Shown here: positions 15,110 to 62,467 of the stretch, one piece after another | Numbering within the stretch: the first letter of the stretch is position 1 | Layout: each line of letters starts with the position of its first letter | Source: Candidatus Altiarchaeales archaeon | GTDB lineage: Archaea; Altiarchaeota; Altiarchaeia; IMC4; SCGC-AAA252-I15 | NCBI GenBank assembly: GCA_014727915.1 | Contig: WJMO01000006.1 | Location: 288,001 to 352,000 of the forward strand | Direction of reading: 5' to 3' | Length of the DNA stretch: 64,000 bases | Program-made: the position numbers and the translations under genes | The notes under the pieces: generated by a model | The model's input: only the letters and a program-made list of their open reading frames with translations | What the model was told of the DNA's origin: nothing | Databases searched by the model: none

Positions 15110-16975
15110 TTAAACACCGAACCTTTCCCTCCACATCTGGAACATAAGCAGAGTCCATATTTTCTTGCGGTGGTCTGCTCTGCCTGTGAAGTGCTCGTCG
15201 AGGAGGCCTTGGACGTGGTCGGGGTTGAATATGCCCTCCTCCTCCAGCCTCTCCCTGTCGAATGCCTTCAAAGCCAGCGGTTTGAGGTCTTTCTTCAGCC
15301 ATTCAGCCACGGGTATTCCGAACCCCTTCTTACTCCTGTCCACGATGTCTGCAGGTATACTGTCCCTGAACGCGTCCTTCAATATGGCCTTAGTCGTCAA
15401 GCCCCTGACCTTGTCCCCGTAGGGGATGGAGCACGCGTATTCTATGAAGTAGTGGTCTAGGAAAGGCGACCTGGCCTCCAACGACACTGCCATGCTCGCC
15501 CGGTCCAACTTCGCCAGGATGTCCCCGCCAAGGTAGAACCTGCTGTAGAAGTAGATAAGCCGGCCATCGAAGCCTTCAACCCCGGACCCGGCGAACGCAT
15601 CGTCGATGATGCCATAGGGGTCTTTTGACGTTCTGTTCTTAACATCCGCTGATAGCAGCTTCTCCTGCTCCTCCGGGGTGAAAGAGCCCAGCCAAGCCTG
15701 ATGCCGCCTCAAGCCATCGTATCCGTCCCCGGACACGAACCTCTTCAGCTTGAAGTCGAGGCTTATGTTGCTCGTGGAAACAGGTAATGAATCCGCAAGA
15801 CGCTTCAAAACCCTGCGGACAGGCAGAGGCATGATGCGGTAGTATCTGTGGATCTTTTCCGCCTGGAACGTGGGATAGCCGCAGAACAATTCATCACCGC
15901 CGTCGCCGCCCAACGCGACGGTAACATGCTCCCTCGTATACTTTGAGAGCAGGTATGTTGGTATGACTGAAGCGTCTCCGAATGGCTCGTCCAGGAAGCC
16001 GACCACCTCCTCCAGTATACCCAACATGTCATCCGCCTTGAGGAGGCGCTCATGGTGGTCTGTGCCAAAGTGTTCCGCAACCCTCCGCGCATGATTTGAC
16101 TCGTCGAATGACCTGTCTTCAAAGCCGATTGTGAAGGTCTTGATCCGGTCCGGGGGCACCAGCTCGGACATTAGCGATACTATGATGGATGAGTCAAGGC
16201 CGCCGCTCAGGAAGACACCAAGCGGGACGTCGCTCACAAGCCTCCGCTCAACCGACGACTTCAGCCTTGAGCGGATCCCCTCCAGCTTAGCCGAACGGCG
16301 TTCACCCGAGTCCTCGAATCTCATGCCCCAGTATCGTCCCACCTTGACGTTCCCATCCTCTAAGGTGAGGGTATGGCCTGGAGGCAGCTTCCGAACGCCC
16401 TCGATTATGGAATATGGCGCCGGCACGAATTCGAAGGCGAGGTACATCCGCAGCGCATCCAAGTCGATACTCCTTTCCAATCCGGGGTACTTCAACAGCG
16501 CCTTCAGCTCGGAGGCGAACAGAAACCCGTTTCCAAGGAGACAGTAGTAGAGTGGCTTCTGGCCCATCCGGTCACGGGCAAGCCACAGCCGGTCGTGTCT
16601 GCCATCCCACACGGCGAAGGAGAACATCCCATTCAACATGGTCACACACCCGACATCGTATTCTAGGTAGGAGTTCAACAGAACCTCGGTGTCCGACCCC
16701 GTCTTGAACGTGTGTCCTTTGCCTTCAAGTTCGGCCCGGAGCTCCCGGTAGTTGTATATCTCCCCGTTGTATACGAGCTGTACTTCCCCTGACTCATCAC
16801 TCATGGGCTGGTCCGCTCCCCCGCTGAGGTCTATGACCTTTAGCCTGGTGTGCCCGAGGGACATGCGGTCTGAGACGTATATTCCGGAGCTGTCAGGGCC
16901 CCTGTGAGCCAGTGAACCCCCCATAAGGGAAACGAGTTCCCTGTCCCCCCAGTTGAACCCGCAGATGCCGCACAT
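15110..16975 (-). CDS. asnB: Asparagine synthase (glutamine-hydrolysing), glycan-amidotransferase-like context
   Basis: MCGICG N-terminus, HRGPD, NGEIYN, LSGGLDSS, GDGGDELF, RSPFLD. Confidence 0.95.
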   Translation of the reverse strand: MCGICGFNWGDRELVSLMGGSLAHRGPDSSGIYVSDRMSLGHTRLKVIDLSGGADQPMSDESGEVQLVYNGEIYNYRELRAELEGKGHTFKTGSDTEVLLNSYLEYDVGCVTMLNGMFSFAVWDGRHDRLWLARDRMGQKPLYYCLLGNGFLFASELKALLKYPGLERSIDLDALRMYLAFEFVPAPYSIIEGVRKLPPGHTLTLEDGNVKVGRYWGMRFEDSGERRSAKLEGIRSRLKSSVERRLVSDVPLGVFLSGGLDSSIIVSLMSELVPPDRIKTFTIGFEDRSFDESNHARRVAEHFGTDHHERLLKADDMLGILEEVVGFLDEPFGDASVIPTYLLSKYTREHVTVALGGDGGDELFCGYPTFQAEKIHRYYRIMPLPVRRVLKRLADSLPVSTSNISLDFKLKRFVSGDGYDGLRRHQAWLGSFTPEEQEKLLSADVKNRTSKDPYGIIDDAFAGSGVEGFDGRLIYFYSRFYLGGDILAKLDRASMAVSLEARSPFLDHYFIEYACSIPYGDKVRGLTTKAILKDAFRDSIPADIVDRSKKGFGIPVAEWLKKDLKPLALKAFDRERLEEEGIFNPDHVQGLLDEHFTGRADHRKKIWTLLMFQMWRERFGV

Positions 16976-51841: not shown

Positions 51842-51904
51842 GGAAGGTGGTGTAATTGGATGTATCCAATTGAGCATTTGACTTGTCGCCAAAGAGGCGC
51901 AGAG

Positions 51905-51905
<1 letters not shown>
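51842..51905 (-). other. 23S pre-rRNA processing stem, 3' arm (pairs with 54748-54810)
   Basis: Long imperfect inverted repeat ggaaggtggtgta..ggatgtat..gagcatttg / caaatgctc..atacatcc..tacaccaccttcc. Confidence 0.85.
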
Positions 51906-54745
<2,840 letters not shown>

Positions 54746-54936
54746 AAGACTCTACGTCTCTTTTTGGCGAGCCAAATGCTCTATATAATACATCCTATAC
54801 ACCACCTTCCAAAAGAAGAAAGCCAAAAAGAAAATTGGCTAACTTAGCATGAAAGGTTTCTCCACACGCCCGCCTGCGCAGGCATGCTTCAAGCGAAAAA
54901 ATTTTCCACCAAAATGAATTGATGAACGTGATTGTT

Positions 54937-55190: not shown

Positions 55191-55341
55191 TGGACTCGTC
55201 GGGATTTGAACCCGAGGCCTCCCGCGAACTCGGAACCTTTTACGGACACGGAATATTATTTTCCGTGAACGCTTTTACGGCCTGTAGGCCGGAAAAGGGT
55301 TCTTGCAAGGCGGACGATCTACCGGACTGATCTACGAGCCC
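55191..55341 (-). tRNA. tRNA-Ala(UGC) with 77-nt intron (55227-55303) at 37/38
   Basis: Cloverleaf with G3-U70; canonical BHB (CUUG/CGAG helix with two 3-nt bulges). Confidence 0.95.
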
Positions 55342-55483
55342 CTGAATAAAGTTTCTTGGATTCACCCCAACGGGTTCCATGAATTTTTTGTGTTCAAGTC
55401 TTTTGCTGGAAGAATTTTAGCCCCTGTGCGCGGAAGGCAAATATTCCGCATTGTAAAAGAAGCAAACACATGTTGGTTTGCTT

Positions 55484-56974
55484 GGAGGTGATCCAGCCGC
55501 AGATTCCCCTACGGCTACCTTGTTACGACTTCACCCCCCTCGCGAACCCGAGATTCGACACACCCGAAAATCGAGTATGCCTCACCTCCAATCCACTCAG
55601 TTGGTGTGACGGGCGGTGTGTGCAAGGAACAGGGACATATTCACCGCTTTATGGTAAAAAGCGATTACTAGGGATTTCACCTTCATGAGGGTGAGTTTCA
55701 ACCCTCAATCCGTACTGGGACATGGTTTAGGGGATTAGCTCCGCCTTTCGGTGTTGCAACCCATTGTCCATGCCATTGTATGCCGCGTGTAGCCCAGACG
55801 ATTCGGAGCATACAGACCTACCGTCGCCCGCGCCTTCCTCACACTCATCGCATGCAGTCCCCCTATAGTGCCCCACAAGTCTCCTCGTGGGTTGCAAATA
55901 GGGGTACGGGTCTCGCTCGTTAACGGACTTAACCGTACGCCTCACGGTACGAGCTGACGACGGCCATGCACTACCTCTCGGCTCGTTCGGCAAGACCTTT
56001 AGCCTGGCCTTCATCCTGCCGTCGCGTCTGGTAAGTTTCCCGGCGTTGTATCCAATTGAACCGCAGCATCCACCCCTTGTGGTGTTCCCCCGCCAATTCC
56101 TTTAAGTTTCAGCCTTGCGACCGTACTCCCCAGGTGGTGGGTTTAACGGTTTCCCTTCAGCACTCCCCGAACACGAGGTTCAGGGAACACTAAACCCACA
56201 TCGTTTACGGCTAGGACTACCAGGGTATCTAATCCTGTTCGCTCCCCTAGCTCTCGTACCTCATCGTCAGGCCCGTTCCAGAGTGGCGCCTTCGCTACCG
56301 GTGGTCCTCCAGGGATTATAGCATTTCACCGCTACCCCCAGAATACCCCACTCCTGCCCCGGCCTCAAGCCCAGTAGTATTTTCTGCAAGCCCTACGGTT
56401 AAGCCGCAGGATTTCACAGAAAACTTGCTGAACCGACTACGCACGCTCTAAACCCAGTAAACGCGATCACCACTTGAGCTGCTGGTGTTACCGCGGAGGC
56501 TGGCACCAGTCTTACCCAGCCCTTATTCCCAGAGCTATTTACACTCTGTAAAAGCACACGTTGTACGTGCGCACTTGGGGTCCCCTCGTCACGCTTGCGC
56601 GCATTGCGAAGGTTTCGCGACTGCTGCGCTCCGTAGAGCCTGGACCTTTGTCTCAGTGTCCATCTCCCGGCTCCCACTCTCATGGCCGGTACAGATCGTA
56701 GCCACGGTAGGCCATTACCCTACCGTCAAACTAATCCGCCGCAGACTCATCCTGAGGCGATGGACCGGATACAGGTCTTCTCCTTTGAGCGGCGGACATT
56801 CCAGTGCTCGCCGCCTATGGGGGATTGTCCTCAGTTTCCCGAGGTTATACCCCTCCCCAGGGCAGATTGTCCACGTGTTACTGAGCTGGTTGCCCGGACC
56901 TTAACCGTGTCCGAAACGTGCATGTCTTAATCAAACCCCAATAGCAGTGACCTCGAGCAGGATCAACTCGAGTT
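55484..56974 (-). rRNA. rrs: 16S rRNA
   Basis: 3' GGAUCACCUCC, GUAACAAGGUAGCCGU, AUUAGAUACCC, AAAGGAAUUGGCGGGGG; 5' GUUGAUCCUGC; flanking processing stem. Confidence 0.98.
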
Positions 56975-57277
56975 AATGTACGTATCGCTGATTGTTTTTT
57001 GGAATTGTATGGTCTTCCACACACAGGTATAGCTATTTCCAGCGTTTGAACACGTCAGACAGCCCCCATGCAGAGGATGTCATCATAAATTGCCCACACT
57101 AGCATGGATCGGACTCCACGGAAGGTGCAGACGCCCAAACCGCTTCTAGGCCCAACAAAACCAGATGTGAGGCGATTCCAAATCAACACTTTCCCGCATT
57201 TTGCGGGGTTGTCTCATTTAATTGGAAAAACACATTGCGCAAAGGGAATTTCGCGCGGACAATATATAGGCAACCTC

Positions 57278-57288
57278 TATTTATAAAT
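57278..57288 (-). promoter_or_regulatory. Probable TATA box of the rRNA operon
   Basis: TTTATAAATA on the minus strand ~300 nt upstream of 16S. Confidence 0.45.
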
Positions 57289-57947
57289 CAACTGTAGATG
57301 CCGGATATCGTTCCGCTCGAGGTGAAATCGGCTTTTTTCTGTCCTCCGGCCGTTACCAGGAGTTCTCTGCGCTTTTTGTCCACCATATCATCGATTTTCT
57401 CATCTGAAACGCCCATATTCCGGAAGGACTTGGCCTGGTCCAGGACCTTTGCATAATCAAGGGAACGCTGTGTCGCCGTAGACTCCAGAACGACTTCCAA
57501 CATGAATATCCTTCCCCTCATGTTGAGGTCTGGAGCGCAGTTAGATGCTGATATGTTCTTCCTCTCGCCCGCCCCAAGGTTGAAGGGCGTTTTAGTGATT
57601 AAGTCGCATCTTCCAGAGTCCCGGTTCCAAAGGCTTATTTTCCTCACGGTCGCCGTGTCCAAACCATAGTTGGCAACATTGAATGATAGTCTTCCAGTAT
57701 CGCCGTCTATGGACGGCGAATCCGGAATCAGCACCTTCAGCGACTCTGCCACTTCTTCCTTGGGCTCCATAAGGCCTGAAATGTAGTCGAAGACGCCAAG
57801 CCACCACATAAGTAGGATGAGAGTGACAAAGGTTATGACATAGTCCTTCTTAGAGGGTTGGACGTTCACCGGCAGACTGCCAATGGATCGGCTAGGCTGG
57901 CCTGTTTTATCGTCTGTTTTAGATTCAGCTTCGAGGTCAGGGGACAT
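57288..57947 (-). CDS. Membrane-anchored protein with pilin-like extracellular domain
   Basis: One TM, then N.G...C...GE....C...SSGTISG pattern shared with pilins in this window; directly follows a pilin gene. Confidence 0.6.
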   Translation of the reverse strand: MSPDLEAESKTDDKTGQPSRSIGSLPVNVQPSKKDYVITFVTLILLMWWLGVFDYISGLMEPKEEVAESLKVLIPDSPSIDGDTGRLSFNVANYGLDTATVRKISLWNRDSGRCDLITKTPFNLGAGERKNISASNCAPDLNMRGRIFMLEVVLESTATQRSLDYAKVLDQAKSFRNMGVSDEKIDDMVDKKRRELLVTAGGQKKADFTSSGTISGIYS

Positions 57948-57948
57948 T

Positions 57949-58623
57949 TTAAGTCCAGGTTATGATTCCCGTACTGTGCTCGACAGTCTGAACGTTACCA
58001 ATCTTTAAAACATATTCTATGTCGATGTATGCGCTTCCCGGATGCCCTGAGCTTACATCCAGACATTTGTCATCCAAACCTTCGATGCCGCCGCCGCCAA
58101 CTTTGATAGTGCCCTCCTGGGGGACCTCATAGTCTTCCACGCCATCGCCAGTATGGTCAACGCATTCGAACACTTGTGAGCCGTAGAGCCCACCAGGCGC
58201 GTAGTCACAGTCTACGATGCTACTATCTTGATAGTGGACTATCTTGCCCTTGTCCGTCTCAGCCAGGCCGTAACCGCATTTCAAATCATGTGATGTGGCT
58301 CCGCCGGTGGGGACCTCGGACTCAGGGGACATGCTGACACTGACGTTCTGCACGTACACTTTAGTGTTCAACGTGTTGGTGAATATGCACACCAGCCCCC
58401 TGTCAAGGGACCCGCCGCCCAGGGCGTTCTCGGTTATCCCGCAGGTGGAAAGCAAGGGCTTGAACGCGCCGGTGAAACCGGATTCTGTGAAGTGGCCGCC
58501 GCCGCCGAAGTTGAATATCCCCAGCCGCCACATGGCAATGCCAGCGACCATCACAACGATAATAGCCCAGCCGTAGGTCATCAGGTACTCCATAGCACCC
58601 TGACCCCTCCTATGAGAAAACAT
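57949..58623 (-). CDS. Archaeal type IV pilin (class III signal peptide)
   Basis: RRG/QGAMEYLMTYGWAIIVV; TTTTATAA box upstream at ~58656-58663. Confidence 0.9.
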   Translation of the reverse strand: MFSHRRGQGAMEYLMTYGWAIIVVMVAGIAMWRLGIFNFGGGGHFTESGFTGAFKPLLSTCGITENALGGGSLDRGLVCIFTNTLNTKVYVQNVSVSMSPESEVPTGGATSHDLKCGYGLAETDKGKIVHYQDSSIVDCDYAPGGLYGSQVFECVDHTGDGVEDYEVPQEGTIKVGGGGIEGLDDKCLDVSSGHPGSAYIDIEYVLKIGNVQTVEHSTGIITWT

Positions 58624-58667
58624 GGTAAATACAGTAACATATTGGACGAGAAAGCTTATAAAAACAG

Positions 58668-59076
58668 GTGGGCCGCGGGGGGCTACCGGCCCCCTCAGTT
58701 CCAAGTTCCTCCTGATCCCCCCGAAACGAATATTGTGCCGCCCAAAGGTGGCACAAATGCAGTAACCAGAATGAATCAATGACGATTGGCTAGAAAAAAG
58801 TACAACCAATAATATTGGCCCAGCAAGGGCGAACATACCATGGTGGATAATTGATTCAACCAGACAATTAGATTTGTCAGAAATGCTCGAGCAATATACA
58901 ATGAAGCCTCCAGCGACTCAAGCGATTATTGCTAAGTACCAACTAAATAGGATATGAAAAACCTCTTTTGAGGATAGCCTCTCAAATTTTATATCCATTT
59001 TGATAGTGCATTCTGGGGGGTCGTAGACCCCCCCATTTCGCTTCGCGTGTCCACGGAGCGAGCCGTGGGCCGCGGG
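58668..59076. mobile_element. ~400-bp islet at the tRNA-His 3' end bounded by a 12-bp direct repeat
   Basis: GTGGGCCGCGGG at 58668-58679 and 59065-59076; AT-rich interior; G-run/C-run hairpins just inside both ends. Confidence 0.5.
58695..58998 (-). pseudogene. Degraded small membrane-protein gene
   Basis: MDIKFERL...YLAIIA*VAGGFIVY...ALAGPILLVV; in-frame TGA at 58918-58920 and probable frameshift at a T6 run. Confidence 0.4.
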
Positions 59077-59215
59077 CGGAATTTGAATCCGCGTCGCCGG
59101 ATAGCTGCAACCTGTCGTATGCCCGGAATTATTATCTTCCGTCAACGCTTTCGCCCGGAGGGCGGAAGAGGGTTGCCACAGTCCAGTAGGATAACCAGGC
59201 TACCCCACCGCGGCC
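59068..59215 (-). tRNA. tRNA-His(GUG) with encoded G-1 and 73-nt intron (59103-59175)
   Basis: Cloverleaf, G-1:C73, BHB (CUGU/GCAG helix). Confidence 0.93.
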
Positions 59216-62394: not shown

Positions 62395-62467
62395 GGGACC
62401 GTGGGGTAGCTTGGTATCCTTCTAGCTTTGGGAGCTAGTGACTCGAGTTCGAATCTCGGCGGTCCCA
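62395..62467 (+). tRNA. tRNA-Pro(UGG), no intron
   Basis: Cloverleaf GGGACCG...CTAGC TTTGGGA GCTAG...TTCGAAT...CGGTCCC A. Confidence 0.95.

Follow-up and report, generated by a model that had tools for sequence, protein, structure and literature searches.

Two tRNA introns of an Altiarchaeales genome as probable copies of a small structured repeat element present within and outside archaeal RNA genes

RESULTS

Homologous introns in tRNA-Ala and tRNA-His

The tRNA-Ala(TGC) and tRNA-His(GTG) genes in a 64,000-nucleotide stretch of a “Candidatus Altiarchaeales” genome (the window, C3:288001-352000 in an assembly, G000, of 1.81 Mb and 13 contigs) are each interrupted by an intron, and both introns are probably copies of one small structured repeat element that colonized tRNA genes, is spliced, and is copied between RNA genes. 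An earlier note on this DNA, made from the sequence alone, had proposed a tRNA intron family; the family is real, but neither tRNA introns nor this lineage are its limits.

Both genes lie on the minus strand. The tRNA-Ala gene, which carries the G3:U70 pair, sits in the 16S-23S spacer at 55191..55341 (Rfam tRNA, 50.5 bits) and, by ARAGORN with intron search over the whole genome, consists of exon 1 at 55341..55304, a 77-nt intron at 55303..55227, and exon 2 at 55226..55191. The tRNA-His gene, with a G at 59215 standing before position 1, occupies 59067..59214, with exon 1 at 59214..59176, a 73-nt intron at 59175..59103, and exon 2 at 59102..59067; the coordinates given earlier for the two introns are correct. 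Both introns interrupt their genes at the canonical position 37/38, and parsing of the bulge-helix-bulge (BHB) splice motif shows the strict hBHBh' form in each, with a central 4-bp helix, two opposed 3-nt bulges, and intact flanking helices. In tRNA-Ala, the anticodon stem is paired at 5/5 positions, the central helix is CUUG/CGAG, the bulges are CAA and UUC, and the outer helix is GAACC/GGUUC (5' strand at 55298..55302; the 3' strand followed by CGAG, which pairs with tRNA positions 32-35, at 55229..55237). In tRNA-His, the anticodon stem is likewise 5/5, the central helix is CUGU/GCAG, the bulges are GGC and CUA, and the outer helix is AACC/GGUU (3' strand followed by GCAG at 59105..59112). 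The BHB-pairing bases therefore do differ to suit each anticodon loop, as had been claimed. A single EndA homologue is present in the genome (PF01974, 109.5 bits, in a 190-aa frame, C11:6656-6916), which from its 190-codon size is probably of the homotetramer type, one that requires strict motifs of this kind. Excision by EndA at 37/38 and ligation of the exons are predicted from the genomic sequence.

Aligned globally, the two introns have 58 identical positions and score 29, against -11.6 ± 4.3 (maximum, 2) for 1,000 dinucleotide shuffles (z 9.5). Both are also matched by R1, a covariance model of 83 diverse cores that come from other genomes save for four local rows: the Ala core, GAACCC-UUUU-hairpin-AAAA-GCGUUC-ACGG-AAAA, at 55259..55302 (58.2 bits, E 6.5e-13; also the first row of the underlying alignment), and the His core, CAACCC-UCUU-hairpin-AAA-GCGUUG-ACGG-AAGA, at 59135..59175 (40.2 bits, E 7.2e-8). 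Two A/U-rich, BHB-forming introns might come to resemble each other by chance or through low complexity, and these two are both A-rich and both obliged to make AACC/GGUU-like helices; the shuffles and the R1 E values refute that explanation, to which we attach next to no weight, and conservation in relatives is not confined to the BHB, the internal core being kept more strictly than the BHB ends. The homology of the Ala and His introns is thus borne out.

As the earlier note had it, C/D boxes are absent: UGAUGA and CUGA occur in neither intron, and Rfam gives no small nucleolar RNA match. Rfam reports only tRNA at the two introns, with no other Rfam 15 family near its gathering score and just sub-threshold chance matches. 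The idea of a guide RNA gains nothing from complementarity to rRNA, which is at chance level (3 eight-mers of the Ala core complementary to 16S or 23S rRNA versus 2.9 expected).

Copies within the genome and turnover between relatives

Among the 19 intron-bearing ARAGORN calls in G000, 10 have a common layout, namely RRCCC, a U-rich arm, a hairpin top, an A-rich arm, a short G/C/U linker, and a second A-rich tract. All ten are hBHBh' introns at 37/38, other positions being suggested only in other genomes, and two of the ten host genes were misnamed by ARAGORN, their anticodon loops giving tRNA-Met(CAT) and tRNA-Trp(CCA). Similar introns occur in different tRNA species of this one genome by R1 score (Asn, 59 bits; Ala, 58.2; Gly, 44.6; His, 40.2; Thr, 37.4). 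The linker is of another type (GGUGCUUCACCCCC) in the introns of Glu, two Met, Arg(TCT), and Trp. In this genome, the element also has a distal GGUUS that pairs with its own 5' end to form the outer helix of hBHBh', and only the last six bases of the element are fitted to the host anticodon loop. Weak R1 matches at C3:26072, C2:19426, C3:150511, and C6:136667 were dropped as ordinary coding-like sequence. The misnamed tRNA-Trp(CCA), outside the window at G000:C11:99288-99560 (“tRNA-Arg(CCT)” in ARAGORN; L015), has a 190-nt intron at 37/38 in which the repeat element comes first, followed by about 130 nt, GAUGACGA among them. In archaea, the introns of tRNA-Trp often hold a C/D box guide; Rfam gives no match to this one at E ≤ 1.

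Three copies in G000 are not introns: one follows a stop codon (C13:57817), one lies in a tRNA-Gly/tRNA-Gln spacer (C13:57438), and one lies between convergent open reading frames (ORFs; C12:331103). At G000:C13:57390-57830 (L016), a tRNA-Gly(TCC) with a family intron of its own is flanked on either side by a stand-alone pyrimidine-purine-mirror-purine copy, one directly after the stop codon of the upstream ORF and the other in the spacer before tRNA-Gln; the linkers of these two copies, CGCGCCGCCCAC and CCUGUACC, are unlike the intron type.

The closest BLAST relatives of the Ala intron (82-89% over its first 45-57 nt) come from five other genomes of the host's order, where they reside in tRNA-Asn, Gly, Leu(TAG), Leu(TAA), and Met. 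We compared the spacer tRNA-Ala(TGC) across 11 genomes of the host's family. The family intron is present in five (G000, G002, G020, G013, and G014, at 77, 80, 49, 89, and 78 nt), whose introns differ considerably in their hairpin tops and of which G014 has the other type of linker; five (G001, G010, G015, G017, and G006) have no intron at this site, and one (G005) has an unrelated 33-nt insert. G001 belongs to the same genus as G000 and has identical tRNA-Ala exons. Because the orthologous site is so patchily occupied and the nearest neighbors of the Ala intron lie in other isotypes, these comparisons show gain, loss, or replacement on short time scales. Mobility between isotypes, inferred in the earlier note, is accordingly supported: homologous introns occupy tRNA-Ala, His, Asn, Gly, and Thr here, and the best matches of the Ala intron are in other tRNAs of other genomes. 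In descriptions of Thermoproteales, a pattern of turnover such as this has been called intron transposition (PMC4033280; bioRxiv 10.64898/2026.10.13.758758).

Structure of the element

The conserved core is 45 to 55 nt long (44 nt in minimal copies) and reads S'AACCC-U4-variable hairpin-A4-GCGUUS-ACGG-A4; AAAAGCGUUSACGGAAAA is nearly invariant across distant groups, and the hairpin top varies freely. What had been taken for a conserved linker, AAAGCGUU, is instead the 3' strand of a covarying helix, in which GCGUUS pairs with S'AAC at the 5' end of the intron (in the Ala intron, GCGUUC at 55267..55272, with a C.C mismatch). Over the 83 cores, 87.4% of cells of the helix S'AAC.CUUUU+5 / 5+AAAAG.GUUS (C.C mismatch) are paired, compared with 75.8 ± 0.8 in shuffles (0/500 as high) and 37-52% in slid registers. 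The innermost variable pairs (13:40, 14:39, and 15:38) have 37, 25, and 34 double changes, and pair 3:50 is GC in 42 cores, CG in 38, and something else in 3. Among the matches listed, S' (the base two positions upstream of ACCC) is the complement of the S in GCGUUS for 113 of 120 unique elements, as C-G in 58 and as G-C in 55; an A:U form, UAAACCC...GCGUUUACGG, occurs in ANME-1, and the lower helix takes the forms AGAC/GUCU, CAGC/GCUG, GAGC/GCUC, and GGGC/GUCC within the host's order.

Hairpin 1 of the Ala intron (C-UUUU-C-CGGCC / GGCCG-U-AAAA-G, 55272..55297, with a pyrimidine-pyrimidine mismatch) is predicted by both folding and covariation, and its counterpart in the His intron (CGCCC/GGGCG, flanked by U/A pairs; 59148..59170) by folding; the compensatory change between CGGCC/GGCCG and CGCCC/GGGCG reported earlier is present. 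Hairpin 2 is CACGGAA-AAUAAUA-UUCCGUG in Ala (55247..55267, by minimum-free-energy [MFE] fold and RNAalifold; the A-tract after ACGG starts here) and CGGAA-GAUAAUAA-UUCCG in His (59124..59141, by folding). It arises in full-length copies by pairing of GUUSAC with a downstream GUS'AAC, and many copies stop soon after ACGGAAAA, without its 3' arm. The proposal that internal structure is under selection is supported by hairpin 1 and the lower helix, which covary; hairpin 2 and the AACC/GGUU closure exist only in full-length copies. The hairpin 2 loop AAUAAU(A/G)U is common to Ala, His, Gly, and the Gly and Leu introns of relatives, and is kept within the host's order, not family-wide.

A three-way junction, ascribed earlier to both introns, is the MFE structure of the Ala intron (-27.2 kcal/mol, z -4.8, 0/200 shuffles as good; ViennaRNA) and also of the Asn and Gly introns, but the His intron instead gives a long hairpin in which its 5' CAAC pairs with the proximal GUUG (z -1.8, 10/200 shuffles as good). 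For seven full-length introns, RNAalifold returns the junction (23 pairs, 7 with double changes), and a covariation term of +0.66 lends it weak support. Because the 5' end is needed both by the distal GGUUS, for the outer helix, and by the proximal GCGUUS (in Ala, GAACC could pair with GUUC at 55267-55270), the junction and the long hairpin are predicted to be alternative folds, and the lower helix would compete with the outer helix of the splice motif.

Distribution across archaea and genomic contexts

A scan of one genome per prokaryotic species with the pattern ACCCTYTT-N8-30-AAAGCGTTSACGGAA yielded at least 121 loci; the counts of loci and elements in this section are among the matches listed. 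Of 121 such loci, 119 are labelled archaeal, under Micrarchaeota, Iainarchaeota, Aenigmatarchaeota, Nano-, Woese-, and Parvarchaeota, and Altiarchaeota, as well as Methanocellales, Methanosarcinales, Methanophagales (ANME-1), Syntrophoarchaeum, and Thermoplasmata. The two others (L109 and L117) are on short contigs of a bin labelled Sulfurovum, look archaeal, and are taken as mis-binned. With R1 at E ≤ 1e-4, 42 of the 49 genomes of the host's order were matched, 1 to 19 times each, and 7 gave none; five genomes labelled Aenigmatarchaeota, Parvarchaeota, Micrarchaeota, Methanophagales, and Iainarchaeum have 8 to 19 matches apiece, and in the phylum to which the Methanophagales genome belongs, 16 of 151 sampled genomes were matched. 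Viruses, where the earlier note had suggested that copies might be sought, gave 0 loci in 2.9 million contigs for the exact core pattern, the only form scanned there.

ARAGORN places the motif in an intron at 34 of the 121 loci, over 25 anticodon classes, and brute-force excision restores a tRNA for 46 of 125 elements (ARAGORN being permissive in such a test), with junctions near 5-8, 12-17, 21, 40, 57-59, and 70, close to the anticodon loop, D-loop, T-loop, and acceptor stem; the T-loop and D-loop flanks of some copies are readable directly in the sequence. Orientation could be read from a bracketing intact tRNA for 40 sense and 2 antisense copies, the other 83 of 125 giving none. Copies outside tRNAs were found inside 23S rRNA, after 5S rRNA, and after stop codons: four lie immediately 3' of 5S rRNA, and two fall within archaeal 23S rRNA matches (model positions 1506-1883 and 2692-2987). 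In an ANME-1 genome with 17 R1 matches, no intact spliceable tRNA host was found among the copies examined, which are intergenic, several beginning at a TAA; at three of eight loci, a same-strand frame open to the flank edge ends at the element's TAA, which is suggestive at most for 250-nt flanks at 8 of the 17 loci.

Copies occur in tandem at L018, L114, and L124 and as antisense copies within long introns at L020 and L068. The latter, in a metagenome-assembled genome (MAG) of Methanosarcinales, is a tRNA-Glu(CTC) whose 37/38 intron contains one degenerate sense copy and one antisense copy, forming a long inverted repeat. At L077, L109, and L117, the element has an intact tRNA (Rfam, 58-71 bits) as its neighbor, and part of the 3' end of that tRNA is duplicated at the element's flank, an arrangement that resembles the scar of an integrated element. 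In ANME-1 genome G052, a second repeat, CUUUCUUUU-AAAAGAAAG then UUUGUGUGGAAAUCCGUGUAAUC...GGUUAUAAAA, adjoins the element at L168, L173, L174, and L182 and recurs just upstream of an apparent TATA box.

A mirror purine tract

Where the pyrimidine arm (Y) is long, the purine tract that follows ACGG (or CACCCC), here called the tail, is the parallel complement of Y, i.e., the mirror image of the Watson-Crick purine arm. For 51 distinct asymmetric Y/tail pairs (33 distinct Y), the parallel complement describes the tail better than a direct copy does in 45, equally well in 4, and less well in 2. Agreement with the parallel complement is perfect in 33 of the 51 and off by at most one base in 41, and includes runs of 12/12 and 13/13. 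When tails were shuffled among 120 elements (among the matches listed), positions 5-12 matched 253 times in the real data versus 171 ± 11 (maximum, 206 in 2,000 shuffles); over all 83 rows of R1, the excess of parallel pairs is modest (49.7% versus 41.6 ± 2.3). A linker-blind scan of G000 found 54 pyrimidine-purine hairpins, 9 with a mirror 7-mer 4 to 24 nt downstream and 0 with one upstream, and other permutations of the same letters gave 14 in 1,064 tried. Read from the sequences, the tail tracks Y even in copies whose Watson-Crick arm has a bulge or is short (L107, L069, and L140).

The mirror rule is strong only for long pyrimidine arms. In a length test with a noisy regular expression, an A5 tail occurs in 6 of 15 U5 elements and an A6 tail in 2 of 8 U6 elements, whereas a matching Watson-Crick arm is present in 13 of the 15 and in all 8, respectively. 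Neither window intron has a homopurine/homopyrimidine stem of about 8 nt or more, the long tracts being found in other copies: both are limited to four-base tracts (UUUU/AAAA/AAAA in Ala), and the His tail, GGAAGA, is exceptional in being the antiparallel complement of UCUUCC, not its mirror. Family-wide, the blocks follow one another on one strand as pyrimidine, purine partner, and mirror purine, an arrangement described for intrastrand purine-motif triplexes (PMC4666352). The known triplex repeats of that description lie in G/C-rich DNA of enterobacteria and cyanobacteria, form triplexes in vitro, and mark unstable loci (PMC4666352). By analogy with these repeats, the archaeal element may form a triplex, in RNA or DNA.

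Genomic setting and annotation of the two genes

The window contains an archaeal rRNA operon on the minus strand (Rfam: 16S at 55483-56973 and 23S at 51896-54758). ARAGORN without intron search reports only tRNA-Pro (62395-62467) in the window and misses both tRNA-Ala and tRNA-His; the Rfam tRNA model at its gathering score reports the intron-bearing tRNA-Ala and misses the intron-bearing tRNA-His at 59067-59214. Because default runs miss such genes, standard annotation under-calls tRNAs in these genomes. The intron mode in turn reports a “tRNA-Pro(AGG)” with a 565-nt intron at window positions 16297-16958 and a “tRNA-His(ATG)” with an 82-nt intron at G000:C3:495631-495810, both of which look like false positives.

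DISCUSSION

In the account that we favor, that of a repeat element which settled in tRNA genes and is spliced and copied between RNA genes, the single 190-codon EndA homologue would cut the element out at 37/38, the exons would then be ligated, and the 5' end of the excised RNA may switch from its distal partner to the proximal GCGUUS, giving one long hairpin with a 3' purine tail. The family would spread by copying between RNA genes, as proposed for introns of Thermoproteales, because copies come and go at orthologous sites and occupy different tRNAs in different genomes; the route might be reverse splicing followed by recombination, or conversion or insertion at the DNA level. Selection on the core would serve either the persistence of the element itself or some function of the RNA once excised, as suggested by a core hairpin that covaries and a sequence kept across distant archaeal groups.

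Several observations weigh against this account. Copies that follow stop codons or 5S rRNA or lie between convergent genes are not introns, so that the name “intron family” is too narrow. Machinery for mobility was not identified, the exact core pattern is missing from the viral contigs scanned, and conservation of the core across groups could reflect a host function rather than mobility. The loci were chosen by a pattern that fixes many columns, so that the covariation is borne by the S':S pair and the variable stem only; in that stem, G.U (26 cells) does not exceed A.C (31 cells), and selection of the fold specifically on the RNA strand is therefore not supported. Within G000, the introns of Glu, two Met, Arg, and Trp are tied to those of Ala and His by architecture only, with pairwise z mostly below 2 (the exceptions being Thr-Trp at 6.3, Ala-Trp at 3.8, and Thr versus others at 1.8-3.6), and appear to join the family indirectly, through Thr (z 1.8-6.3) and Ala-Trp (z 3.8); an nhmmer profile that unites the ten introns was built from those same ten and is circular.

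The main competitor takes the element to be a DNA-level repeat, either an intrastrand-triplex sequence or one akin to a miniature inverted-repeat transposable element (MITE), an archaeal counterpart of the bacterial PIT/TM repeats that inserts or recombines anywhere; copies in tRNA genes would survive only where their ends happen to make a BHB, and intron status would be a consequence. Much of what was found outside introns speaks for it: the 17 R1 matches of the ANME-1 genome, the three non-intron copies of G000, the four copies after 5S rRNA, the tandem copies, the antisense copies within long introns, and the partial tRNA 3' duplications beside L077, L109, and L117. The lack of a G.U excess over A.C points the same way, and so does the layout, which fits published intrastrand purine-motif triplex repeats linked to genomic instability, as these are described in PMC4666352. 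We nevertheless consider it unlikely, if a serious contender: a ratio of 40 sense to 2 antisense copies would demand strong selection, terminal inverted repeats with target-site duplications were not demonstrated, no transposase was linked to the element, copies of 44 nt are very small for a DNA transposon, and the pattern had no matches in viral contigs.

Alternatively, the element could be a host-beneficial RNA module, mostly inherited vertically, whose stable fold binds a conserved archaeal protein or blocks exonucleases, acting in the excised, possibly circular intron and, as the same module, at transcript 3' ends. The near invariance of AAAAGCGUUSACGGAAAA across distant groups, with a hairpin top left free, is what such a module would predict, and the stand-alone copies seen closely follow a gene, 5S rRNA, or tRNA of the same strand. 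Vertical inheritance is hard to square with a genome of the same genus that has identical tRNA-Ala exons and no intron, with an empty site in 5 of the 11 family genomes, with copy numbers that range from 1 to 19 within one order in which 7 of 49 genomes have no match, and with a phylum, that of the Methanophagales genome, in which only 16 of 151 genomes are matched; a guide function in particular lacks a C/D or H/ACA signature and an excess of rRNA complementarity (3 eight-mers versus 2.9). We judge this explanation decidedly improbable.

A further reading, which we also hold to be improbable taken as a whole, is that the element is a triple-helix module kept across many archaeal groups, acting at RNA 3' ends and in excised introns and promoting recombination. 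The U/C-rich arm, its A/G-rich Watson-Crick partner, and the mirror A/G-rich tail would make up the triplex, with the invariant GCGUUSACGG as the turn; the triplex could form in RNA, in the displaced nontemplate DNA strand, or between nascent pyrimidine RNA and the downstream purine duplex, and its tendency to promote recombination would move introns between tRNA genes. To our knowledge, a purine-motif triple helix has not been established for a natural RNA.

Comparison with known systems places the element near several of them. The C/D box guide RNA encoded in the intron of archaeal pre-tRNA-Trp is a structured RNA with a function, borne by a BHB intron at 37/38; the Ala and His introns differ from it in having neither C nor D boxes and no excess complementarity to rRNA, and their family occupies many isotypes. 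Repetitive extragenic palindromic (REP) and MITE-type repeats are short imperfect palindromes in many copies, often directly downstream of genes, and the element resembles them in all of these features; unlike them, it has no demonstrated transposase, terminal inverted repeats, or target duplications, and it shows a strong sense bias in tRNA genes. In RNA triple helices of the MALAT1 type (expression and nuclear retention elements, ENE), three tracts of one strand can stack near the RNA 3' end; the antisense strand of the element would give exactly their U.A-U / C+.G-C layout, but the sense strand, the one that is transcribed, combines a single pyrimidine tract with two purine tracts, which is the purine motif.

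Of the systems known to us from published descriptions, the transposed tRNA intron families of Thermoproteales (Fujishima et al. 2010, as described in PMC4033280 and bioRxiv 10.64898/2026.10.13.758758) are alike in that similar BHB introns recur in different tRNAs and, in other genomes here, perhaps at different positions, with a gain and loss pattern that fits copying between genes. By these citing descriptions, the present element is set apart by its carriers, which are Altiarchaeota-labelled kin, DPANN groups, Methanocellales, ANME-1, and Thermoplasmata, and by its single core across groups, covarying helix, mirror purine tract, and copies outside tRNAs, although the Thermoproteales families may share some of these features. 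The bacterial PIT/TM_ECO motif, 5'-CCCTCNCCC-N3-6-GGGNGAGGG-N3-GGGNGAGGG (Holder et al. 2015, PMC4666352), has the same one-strand order of pyrimidine arm, Watson-Crick purine partner, and second purine block and is likewise dispersed, multicopy, often intergenic, and variable between close relatives. As described there, PIT/TM repeats are G/C-rich bacterial DNA repeats without a known RNA role, whereas the element is A/U-rich and archaeal, has a conserved nontriplex linker, GCGUUSACGG, and resides inside putatively spliced introns, and its triplex is a predicted one.

Cross-isotype intron families and intrastrand triplex repeats are both already known; the element itself is apparently undescribed. 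Neither Rfam nor the open-access papers and preprints searched held a description of one core kept across so many archaeal groups, of alternative pairing with the splice motif, or of a triplex-type mirror tract inside putatively spliced introns.

Families of tRNA introns shared between isotypes had been known essentially from one crenarchaeal order, and the present element spans DPANN, Altiarchaeota, several orders of methanogens and methanotrophs, and Thermoplasmata, at roughly 1 to 19 copies per genome. R1 is a ready model for annotating interrupted tRNA and rRNA genes in MAGs, ARAGORN having placed the motif in an intron at only 34 of the 121 listed loci. With filled and empty sites in one genus and copies inside and outside RNA genes, the family offers a tractable system for the movement of BHB introns, and its members form a natural set of sequences for a biochemical test of triplex-type covariation. 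A triplex formed in RNA would be the first purine-motif triple helix of a natural RNA, and if the core binds a protein or forms a triplex, it would represent new archaeal RNA biology; if the element is purely selfish, it would clearly exemplify a mobile BHB intron that crosses between major groups of archaea.

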